Origin: a virus
Lineage: Monodnaviria > Loebvirae > Hofneiviricota > Faserviricetes > Tubulavirales
Direction: 5' to 3' (one strand)
Length of the DNA: 6,758 nucleotides
Virus record (IMG/VR): IMGVR_UViG_2579779084_000001
Part shown: one piece after another, positions 1-1,956 of the stretch
How the letters are laid out: every line of letters starts with the position of its first letter
Position numbering within the stretch: the stretch's first letter is position 1
Notes under the pieces: model-generated
Told to the model about the DNA's origin: nothing
The model's input: the letters and a program-made list of their open reading frames with translations, nothing else
Databases searched by the model: none
Made by a program: the position numbers and the translations under genes

Positions 1-1956
1 GCATCCGTTGCCCTTGGTCGTCCCTGCCTGACGCTGCCCGAACGCGAGCATTTTCGGACTGAGCGCGATGTTGCCACCCGCAACCTTGCCACGCTTTCCC
101 GCCAGTATCGTGATGAGGTCGGGACCTTATCTGCACAGCTCGCATTGCCACGTAACACGCAGGTTGACCGTGTGATTTACGGAATTAACTGCACGGATTT
201 ATCTCTCGCTGACAGGGGCAGGGCTGCCGGACTGGTATCACAGTTTGGCTCGTTTTCGTTCACCGTGGCGCATGCTTTCTGCCGTCTGGTTTACCAGCTC
301 GGTGTGAAAAATGCGCTGATGGCGCTTGAGTCCGCGCACCGTTTTGCTTTCTTCAATCAGGACGGAGACCCTTATGAATTCTCGCTTTTCTGCACTGATG
401 AGCAGATTGCTGAGGTGGCTGATTCGGTTGTTCGTGACTGCCTTGTTTCTCGGGCCATTTATAGTGATGTACCAGAGCATCACCTTCTCAATGTGATGGC
501 CTATTTTCGGGCCATCTCCGGCTTTGATTTCGCCCCCGTTTATGCCACTTATCATGAGCGTTACGGCGATGAGGGATTGCTTAAGCGTCTGACTGATTTG
601 GCTTTTGTCACCCGTTTCCTGCGGGTTATCCGTGACCAGCGGGTCAATGAGGTCTGTCGCATGCTCGGCATACTGAACCGCAACGCGCCTTATATTTCTG
701 ACTGGCATCGTGACCTGTTTGCTGTCCGCAGTAAACGCGTGAAAAAGTATCTCCGGTCCTCCGGTGTCTTTGATGCGTTTAATGAGCTGGTCTGTACGCT
801 GGAAGATGCGCATAACGCCTCTGTTTCGAATCCGAAAAACCGGATTGCTGAACTCTGCGTTCGTGGAAAGGCCGTCTGTGAACTGTCCGAAGATATGGGG
901 CTGTCCGGCTACTTCATCGTGCTCACCACGCCGTCACGTTTTCACCCGACGACCAGTTTTAAGGTTGCCGGAAAATGGCATTCTCGTCCGAATAAAAAAT
1001 GGTGGGAAGCAGGTTGCCCGACCGTTAAGGATTCGCACGCCTGGCTGAATACCGTCTGGCGTCGGGTCTGCCGCAGACTGGATAAAGCCGGTATTCAGAT
1101 ACCCGGCCTGCGCACGGTCGAGCCTCATGCTGACGGTACAACGCACTGGAATTTCCTGATTTACTGCAATCCCCATGAGAGCGCAACGGTGCTGGCCATT
1201 TTCCGTGAAGAGGCCATGCGCGATGAGCCGGATGAAAAGGGGGCGAAAGAGCACCGTATTCGTATTGAGGCTATTGACCCTGAAAAGGGTGATGGTTTCC
1301 GTTACATCGTGAAGTACATCACCAAAATGGCGGGGGATGTCAGTGCGGATGGTATTACCGCCCTGAATGACCGTTATTCTGCCCGTTCATTCTGTGATGC
1401 CGTCAGCCGTGCCGCCTGCTGGCAGAAAGCAACGCGCCTTCGCCTGTTCCAGTTCTTTGGCGTTCCCTCCGTTACGGCTTACCGCCAGATGCGCAGCTTC
1501 CGCGCACCGCTTGAGGCGCATCATATCAATATGCAGCAGTTCACGCCGCAGCAGGTCGCCGAACTGGAAGCCATCCGCATGGCCTGTGATGCAGGCGATT
1601 TCCGGACCTATATCCTGCTGAACGGCGGTTTCTTCTGTTCTGAACGTCTGCTTCGTCCGTTTTACGTTCAGCCGCAGGAAGGTGGTAAACCCCGTTTTAA
1701 CCGTTACGGTGAACCCTGCGCACCGGTGATTTCCGGTTTCATGTTTGGCCCTGTTCCGGTCATAACCCGTTTTATGGGCTGTGTTGTCCGCCGTATGACC
1801 CCCGCAGAAAAAATCCGCGCAGAGGAAGTCAGAAGCGGCAGCAGCTATGAATCTGTGTTTATTTCGTCGGCTTCACGACACCGCACGACGCGCTCCCGCG
1901 CGGCGGGTGGGGGCGGCGAAGCCGACCCTTGGACTTGTGACAATAACTGTCCCTGA
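1..1956 (+). CDS. Rolling-circle replication initiator (Rep), phiX174 gpA / P2 gpA-like type; 5'-partial, true start probably upstream of the window
   Basis: Frame 1 has no stop codon from nt 1 to the TGA at 1954-1956. The ORF-track start at 145 is a TTG and there is no in-frame ATG in 1-144, so the gene most likely begins upstream. Contains [10 protein letters not shown] (nt 1297-1326), two tyrosines spaced Y-x-x-K-Y-x-x-K, the catalytic signature of phiX174 A / P2 A-type initiators. A His-containing segment [14 protein letters not shown] (nt 1123-1164) about 55 aa upstream is a candidate metal-binding (HUH-like) motif. Sits directly upstream of an Ff-like structural gene block. Confidence 0.8.

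Follow-up and report, generated by a model that had tools for sequence, protein, structure and literature searches.

Which kind of protein initiates replication of a filamentous prophage of Escherichia coli, and at which site on the phage DNA would it act? This question is raised by the IMG/VR virus record IMGVR_UViG_2579779084_000001, a stretch of 6,758 nucleotides (nt) that was analyzed as a whole, to which we refer as the window and which begins within the gene rep. Comparison with characterized phages indicates that this first gene codes for a two-tyrosine HUH (histidine-hydrophobic-histidine) rolling-circle initiator of the phiX174 gpA / P2 gpA family. We consider it highly probable that Rep of the prophage, as a two-tyrosine initiator of Pfam family PF05840, acts at an origin core located in the 3' end of its own gene.

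A segment of the chromosome of E. coli AST205 matches the full length of the window with 98.7% identity. The window covers about 79% of an E. coli filamentous (inovirus) prophage, the unit of which measures 8.6 kb. The rep gene occupies positions 1-1956 of the plus strand, with its stop codon at 1954-1956, and no stop codon interrupts frame 1 between nt 1 and 1953, which corresponds to 651 codons, as anticipated by the original prediction, which had described an open reading frame (ORF) of at least 650 amino acids (aa) extending to the window start. The list of ORFs contains only the piece of this frame that begins at an internal TTG at position 145. In AST205, the coding sequence starts 45 nt upstream of the window and specifies a protein of 666 aa annotated as 'replication endonuclease', which is also the name the gene already carries in RefSeq. 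The window therefore holds the 3' 98% of rep (codons 16-666 of the 666-aa protein). Residue numbers given here follow the window, and Y435, Y439 and K442 correspond to Y450, Y454 and K457 of the full-length protein.

A Pfam scan with the translated rep gene revealed a match to PF05840 (Phage_GPA) of 167 bits, at a cut-off of 31.4 and with an E-value of 6e-49, and a match to PHROG 91 ('nicking at origin of replication') was obtained with an E-value of 8e-129. Neither the Ff gII family (PF05144, Phage_CRI) nor Rep_trans (PF02486) matched Rep at E<=1, and the single-tyrosine SIYNK-type module was absent from the translation. When scanned in an equivalent way, phiX174 gpA (E=6e-62), P2 gpA and Rep of the Vibrio phage fs2 each matched PF05840. 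The profile search thus agrees with the earlier proposal that this initiator is of the phiX174-A/P2-A type and not of the Ff gII type. Protein A of phiX174 is the prototype of PF05840 and its two tyrosines serve in initiation and termination (PMC5714925). In a BLASTP comparison with the A protein of P2 (E=8e-37, 28% identity over 419 aa), the segment YIVKYITK of Rep came to lie opposite YIAKYISK of P2, which contains Y450 and Y454, the active-site pair that, according to the citing passage in PMC3986222, was studied by Odegrip and Haggard-Ljungquist (2001). A HMMER search of the family yielded 1916 cluster representatives at E<=1e-3. The nearest phage relatives detected by tblastn were fs2, VFJ, Vaf1, Dolos and the pre-CTX 'RstA-like' protein with 29-33% identity, followed by P12 of PM2, Rep of HP1 and the A proteins of P2-like phages.

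The translation of nt 1303-1326 (tac atc gtg aag tac atc acc aaa; codons 435-442 on the plus strand) reads Y435-I-V-K-Y439-I-T-K442, exactly as had been claimed, and constitutes the predicted catalytic motif 3. Two protein alignments were constructed, one with 23 sequences, among them P2 A and PM2 P12, and one with 32 sequences. In both, the tyrosine pair, which aligns with the catalytic Y450/Y454 of P2 A, the last lysine of YxxKYxxK and the columns E-P-H..D....H are invariant. Because the tyrosines and the last lysine are invariant in both alignments, YIVKYITK is not a chance pattern, and Y...Y..K was encountered in 234 of the 240 family proteins collected. Also, Rep contains the rolling-circle replication motif 1 (hydrophobic-T-hydrophobic-T-x-P...H) in a region encoded by nt 913-945 of the plus strand, which aligns with FITLTAPSKYH of P2 and in which T309, P311, S312 and H315 are invariant.

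Where would such a protein cut? The original prediction had placed the nick site within or near rep and had suggested searching there for a conserved nick-site sequence. A P2-like motif of 25 nt was indeed found within the last 30 bases of rep. The sequence CCTTGGACTTGTGACAATAACTGTC, at 1927-1951 of the plus strand, is predicted to be the core of the (+)-strand origin and to contain its nick site, on account of its homology to the mapped nick site of P2. In the GenBank record of P2, the nick is placed at 29892, inside gene A and within GCGCCTCGGAGTCCTGTCAATAACTGTGG. The core of the window is identical to the P2 origin in 19 of 25 nt, CAATAACTGT included, and is read in the same codon phase (..VNNC.. 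in P2 and ..DNNC.. in the window). Within the window, CCTTGGACTTGTGACAATAACTGTC occurs once, versus 0.00 occurrences expected from shuffled sequences.

In order to follow this motif across the family, DNA was fetched for related loci of decreasing Rep similarity, six of them through a scan of genome contigs and the rest protein by protein. They comprised three E. coli or metagenomic lineages (Rep identities of 65, 59 and 55%), one metagenomic locus at 48%, two metagenomic circles at about 26%, loci of Salmonella diarizonae, Providencia and four Xenorhabdus species, and the isolated phages fs2, Dolos and pre-CTX. A gap-free scan detected the 25-mer with at most three mismatches in 14 further inovirus loci, the Rep proteins of which have identities of only 25-65%. 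In the most distant locus, a metagenomic circle with 26% identity (L014), the 25-mer has five mismatches, and in P2 and PM2 it has six. In every inovirus locus with a match, the core is on the same strand as rep and is found at the 3' end of this gene, and neither those loci nor the full prophage unit yielded a second copy.

The position of the core relative to the reading frame of rep differs among the loci. It is inside rep and in phase 0 in the window, in the loci of P0011 and P0013, in P2 and in PM2, it is inside rep and in phase 2 in fs2, and it extends across the stop codon in phase 1 in Salmonella (..GCC TTG GAC TTG TGA). In Dolos, pre-CTX and the locus of P0042 it follows immediately 3' of the stop codon, and in the loci of P0004, P0039, Providencia, Xenorhabdus and P0014 it is situated 8 to 344 nt 3' of the stop. 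An alignment of 16 loci anchored on the motif has 14 invariant columns in the core, and both flanks are unalignable. Since the core sits in all three codon phases or outside of the ORF and since its flanks cannot be aligned, selection must act on the DNA rather than on the peptide. Judged from these comparisons, the segment 1927-1951 is a DNA element homologous to the P2 nick site, and the comparative evidence bears out the expectation of a putative nick site in or near rep.

An alternative explanation would leave Rep as described and place the (+) origin at another site, such as the intergenic region preceding rep, by analogy with CTXphi. The 25-mer would then be a regulatory site, either a translational or transcriptional operator of the downstream gene for a single-stranded DNA (ssDNA)-binding protein or a site for autoregulation of Rep. 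In 14 of the 15 inovirus loci tabulated, the motif precedes the start of the next gene by no more than a few tens of nt, which agrees with such a role; fs2, where the motif ends 54 nt before the rep stop, is the sole exception. In P2, however, the homologous counterpart is annotated as the nick site and precedes the end of gene A by 431 nt, and in PM2 and fs2 the distances of the motif from the stop codon of rep are 212 and 78 nt, respectively; all three positions are remote from gene starts. Also, ori(+) of CTXphi with its nick is located in ig-1 upstream of rstR (PMC4439123), but RstA of CTXphi belongs to a different family (PF02486), and its origin layout is no guide for the present case. 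The upstream intergenic region of the full prophage does contain repeated palindromes, but these are of the TGTTAAC type and resemble repressor operators, and no origin-like motif was found there. At the 25-nt motif itself, no promoter or terminator consensus was detected. Taken together, we regard a purely regulatory role of the 25-mer as improbable.

Returning to the core as an origin, homology to the P2 origin predicts that the nick adjoins G1931, that is, at 1931/1932 or at 1930/1931. The nick feature of P2 is assigned to a single base, the G in position 5 of the core (G1931 in the window), and the record does not specify whether the cut is on the 5' or on the 3' side. By analogy with phiX174, where the cut is made after CTTG, a cut at 1931/1932 would be favoured.

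The following course of replication can be proposed, every step of it being taken from the biochemistry of the PF05840 family. Rep would recognise the (+) origin, which would be situated in the 3'-terminal part of rep and consist of the core at 1927-1951 and a GC hairpin abutting it, and would cut the plus strand next to G1931 (CCTTG/GACT, with the slash marking the cut), with the metal held by H376, H382 and N384. Through Y435 or Y439, Rep would become joined to the 5' phosphate, and the 3' hydroxyl would be extended by host helicase and polymerase while the plus strand is displaced. The regenerated origin would then be cleaved by the second tyrosine, and the first tyrosine would re-ligate the displaced strand to a circle. 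The product of the next gene might coat this circle before its export via the pI/secretin machinery. In tandem arrays, synthesis from origin to origin could free unit-length plus strands without excision, as described for CTXphi.

The hairpin mentioned above is a small GC-rich structure, GGGGCGGC-GAA-GCCGACCC, at 1910-1928 of the plus strand. It has a stem of 7 bp with one G/A mismatch, and it abuts and overlaps the 5' edge of the core. Hairpins with differing stem sequences are found at the same spot in most of the related loci, P2 included, and their stem lengths are too different for a gap-free alignment. In single-sequence statistics, folding z values of -2.96 for the window and of -5.15 for pre-CTX were calculated, and the other loci gave weak values. 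We regard the hairpin beside the core as likely, though unproven.

For the metal-binding motif 2, encoded by nt 1120-1164 of the plus strand, the outcome was mixed. The original prediction had suggested aligning a histidine motif upstream of the tyrosines, and motif 2 does align with its P2 counterpart EPHHDGTPHWHMMLF (EPHHDGTPHWH in the P2 protein), with H376 (nt 1126-1128) and H382 (nt 1144-1146), the first histidine of the HUH pair, being invariant. The second histidine of HUH, however, is replaced by Asn384 (nt 1150-1152), so that Rep reads H382-W-N384 instead of histidine-hydrophobic-histidine, which we regard as a variant of the motif and not as its absence. Asparagine occupies this position in 43 of the 215 family proteins that could be scored, 40 of them forming an enterobacterial clade and three being unrelated, whereas the other 172 have histidine. 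Within the enterobacterial clade (E. coli, Salmonella, Morganella, Providencia and Xenorhabdus), asparagine is fixed down to about 38% identity. As the other catalytic columns stay invariant in this clade, we infer that H-W-N is a working variant and not a sign of decay.

Might the change from HUH to HUN nevertheless mean that Rep is catalytically crippled and that the prophage is a defective remnant inherited only vertically? The asparagine itself would fit this explanation, as would the fact that the element has been encountered only in the form of a chromosomal prophage, since a megablast search with the window of 50,697 phage records gave no match at the DNA level. The fixation of asparagine in the 40 proteins of the clade with the other catalytic residues invariant points, in contrast, to purifying selection on a working variant. 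Furthermore, the ORFs of the morphogenesis block are all intact in the list of ORFs, one genome can hold multiple and tandem copies (up to 19 matching places), and the cluster formed at 90% contains 2063 member sequences. We therefore consider a defective Rep in a decaying prophage very unlikely.

A confident model of Rep was obtained with AlphaFold2. The last 38 residues of Rep (codons 614-651, encoded by nt 1840-1953 of the plus strand) are the only part of the protein predicted to be disordered in the AlphaFold2 model, the predicted local distance difference test (pLDDT) values of residues 614-651 being below 50. The DNA of 1840-1953 holds GC-rich hairpins as well as the origin core, and requirements of the DNA seem to have been the main influence on this tail of the ORF. 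That the conserved element is instead a functional C-terminal peptide PW[T/S]xxNNC, for example a cysteine-containing metal or DNA clamp, is hardly conceivable: the window protein does end in PWTCDNNCP, with similar ends in P2 (PRSPVNNCGK) and PM2 (PWSTENNCNHP) and in 91 of the 240 family proteins, but the DNA is kept where it is not translated in that frame (it straddles the stop in Salmonella, is read in another phase in fs2 and follows the stop codon in E. coli P0004, Providencia, Xenorhabdus, Dolos, pre-CTX and three metagenomic loci) and the tail is predicted to be disordered, so that the analysis of codon phases effectively refutes this explanation.

A broader interpretation, to which we incline with some reservation, is that the 25-nt core (CCTYGGACTYGTGWCAATAACTGTC) and the hairpin abutting its 5' side are the shared (+) origin of all filamentous phages with a PF05840 initiator, homologous to the origins of P2 and PM2. 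The position of this origin would have shifted between the 3' end of rep and the sequence beyond it, which would have given rise to the disordered, DNA-dictated tail, and the enterobacterial branch would work with an H-U-N and not with an H-U-H metal site. A number of points weigh against an origin and an initiator of this kind. Both the activity of Rep and the position of its origin are predictions from sequence comparison, and the position of the nick goes back to the single-base annotation of P2 in GenBank and is uncertain by 1 nt. The motif nearly always lies just upstream of the next gene, so that for the inoviruses a role in the expression of that gene is possible, and the canonical origin of CTXphi is in the upstream intergenic region, even though its initiator is of a different family. 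Also, the second histidine of HUH is Asn384, and the statistics for the abutting hairpin are weak in most loci taken singly. In the literature we did not find a shared origin core stated for this lineage of filamentous phages, a limited text search for origin sequences returning unrelated primers only.

Some observations on individual loci concern the surroundings and the integrity of the core. Between the rep stop and a distant core, a small extra ORF of 56-111 aa without a Pfam hit is present in L012 (2581-2916), in L013 (10088-10258) and in the Xenorhabdus loci, and it has no counterpart in the window. In a fifth Xenorhabdus locus, that of Xenorhabdus hominickii (L006, 12005-12022), the prophage is broken inside the core, where only the 5' part (CCTTGGACTCGGACTCGG) is left and is directly followed by the 3' part of the secretin gene. 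The sequence after this break matches L005 from 16776 onward. The arrangement represents a deletion, one end of which coincides with the predicted nick site, an outcome that aberrant termination of rolling-circle replication would be expected to produce. In Xenorhabdus szentirmaii (L009, about 12217-12247), the core contains a duplication of six bases (GGACTC GGACTC) at the predicted nick position.

The PM2 record AF155037 lists a 'cleavage site' at 2253/2254 (L002 1525-1526), near the 5' part of gene XII. A core-like sequence, CCTTGGAGCACTGAAAATAACTGTA (peptide PWSTENNC), is found about 1250 nt further, near the 3' end of the gene, at L002 2779-2803 (about 3507-3531 of AF155037). The listed cleavage site was dropped as a comparator in favour of this much better P2-like core elsewhere in gene XII, and the annotated site may be misplaced.

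How the system relates to known ones is best seen from P2 and from the filamentous phages with long initiators. P2 gpA shares with Rep the family PF05840 and aligned versions of motif 1, EPHxDGxxHW and YxxKYxxK, and its origin likewise has a GC hairpin directly 5' of the core. P2 is, however, a tailed double-stranded DNA myovirus with an A protein of 761 aa, of which the N-terminal approximately 200 aa remain unaligned and which has H-W-H where Rep has H-W-N, and its origin lies 431 nt before the gene end, whereas the gene in the window stops 5 nt after the core. The saetiviruses fs2 and VFJ, as well as Dolos and pre-CTX with its 'RstA-like' protein, are filamentous phages in which a PF05840 initiator of 670-716 aa comes first and is followed by genes for the ssDNA-binding protein, the coat, pI and, in some, pIV, and they carry the 25-nt core at the 3' end of rep with two to three mismatches. 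They differ from the prophage in an identity of Rep of only about 29-33%, in their host genera and in a T instead of an A at core position 14, and the Vibrio and Shewanella proteins keep H-W-H where the window has H-W-N. In Table 2 of PMC4863604, fs2 (Pfam05840) and VFJ (module AVGYVAKYLSK) form a third group of filamentous-phage initiators, which is linked to phiX174.

The original prediction had viewed the locus as a modular chimera of an Ff-like morphogenesis block and a different replication module. The type of the initiator was recognized correctly, but the combination is not new, as fs2, VFJ, Dolos and pre-CTX belong to an old and widespread lineage and include members of the third group mentioned above. 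The prophage and its relatives in Salmonella, Providencia and Xenorhabdus are an enterobacterial branch of this long-standing inovirus lineage and not a recent chimera. In pre-CTX, the gene called 'RstA-like' (L019 1030-3159) codes for an initiator of the PF05840 type with 709 aa, and the core follows directly on the stop codon; the protein is no relative of the 359-aa Rep_trans RstA of CTXphi, and the common name is misleading.

With phiX174 gpA, Rep has in common the family PF05840, juxtaposed tyrosines (YVAKYVNK) and an origin inside the gene, whereas phiX174 is a microvirus with a protein of 513 aa and HFH in place of HWN. The phiX174 origin, CAACTTG/ATATTAATAAC, shares CTTG and AATAAC with the window, the spacing between the nick and AATAAC being 5 nt shorter. 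The likeness between CTTG/A...AATAAC of phiX174 and CCTTG/G...CAATAAC is a resemblance only, and homology of the two origins is no more than suggested by it. The initiators of the Ff phages (M13, f1 and fd; gII), of CTXphi (RstA) and of Pf4 (PA0727) also nick the origin of the replicative form of a filamentous phage and stand at the head of the replication module. They belong to other families, gII of Ff to PF05144 and the initiators of CTXphi, VGJ and Pf to PF02486 with one catalytic tyrosine (PMC4863604), and their origins are intergenic. The Xanthomonas phage Cf1c, listed in the literature as having a 'YLAKY' initiator, was discarded as a relative, as the motif is absent and its Rep is much shorter and different; for the same reason the origin core is not general to the Cf1c group. 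By description only, the prophage can be likened to CUS-1 of E. coli K1 and YpfPhi of Yersinia pestis, enterobacterial, dif-integrated tandem prophages of about 8.6-8.7 kb, which also have a small repressor-like gene divergent from rep and a secretin of their own (PMC4266046).

Filamentous phages with this type of initiator, such as fs2 and VFJ, are already known, so that the identification of Rep is a sound but ordinary finding that leaves the understanding of rolling-circle replication unchanged. The modest weight of the results rests mainly on a precise, testable origin and on the H-W-N variant. They define the replication module for a filamentous prophage of about 1% of the complete E. coli genomes and provide a concrete nick site that can be tested. 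The 25-nt core could mark the origins of the PF05840 initiator class in the annotation of inoviruses and could aid the construction of phagemids or vectors for ssDNA production that are independent of the Ff origin, and the fixed H-W-N amounts to a natural experiment on the tolerance of the HUH metal site.

With regard to its genomic context, the window was matched in 42-48 of 5426 complete E. coli genomes (about 1%), which derive mostly from human isolates. The unit in AST205 has 8578 bp and follows directly on hipBA in a head-to-tail array of at least two copies. Downstream of rep and on the same strand, the window carries a gene set of the Inoviridae type with a pI/Zot ATPase, a small coat protein, a pIII-like protein and a secretin. 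The first gene downstream of the origin (1987-2412, plus strand) codes for a protein of 141 aa that matches PHROG 30648 ('unknown function') with an E-value of 4e-94. By its position, its product would take the place of the ssDNA-binding protein of filamentous phages, and in the Shewanella phage Dolos the gene after rep is annotated as coding for an ssDNA-binding protein.

The filamentous-phage morphogenesis block extends from 2727 to 6758 on the plus strand, as deduced from the list of ORFs, PHROG and Pfam matches and the annotation of AST205. It comprises a small coat-like ORF (2727-2987), a pIII-like ORF with a Gly/Ser repeat (3030-4445), a pVI-like ORF (4448-4810; PHROG 1944), the pI/Zot gene (4814-6025; PHROG 1675, protein I of M13, E=9e-50, and PF05707, E=3e-9) and the start of a secretin gene (from 6136 to the window end), which is annotated in the AST205 prophage. 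At 3712-3968, the Gly/Ser linker of this pIII-like protein is encoded by a tandem repeat with a 39-nt period and a higher-order period of 117 nt. When other E. coli copies are aligned to the window, most of them fall into two pieces with a coverage of 82-93%, possibly due to length variation of this repeat.

An exact E. coli dif site was absent from the 22.7-kb locus when up to three mismatches were allowed. A dif-like sequence, AGTGCGCATAATGTGACACGCGTTATGTTGAAA, is present at 6826-6858 of L001, at the left prophage junction after hipA, and again at about 15404-15436 between the tandem copies; its XerC and XerD arms are good, and its central region of 11 nt is longer than that of dif. Outside of the window, at 16434-16509 of L001, three palindromes of the TGTTAAC-N-GTTAACA type are located between the small divergent gene and rep, and these are probably repressor operators over the rep promoter. 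In two E. coli relatives located at other chromosomal sites, L010 and L011 (Rep 65 and 59% identical, respectively), a gene for an IS110-family (DEDD) transposase lies directly upstream of rep (L010 7045-8001 and L011 6919-7872) and replaces the small divergent repressor-like genes, which suggests a different route of integration inside the same phage lineage.

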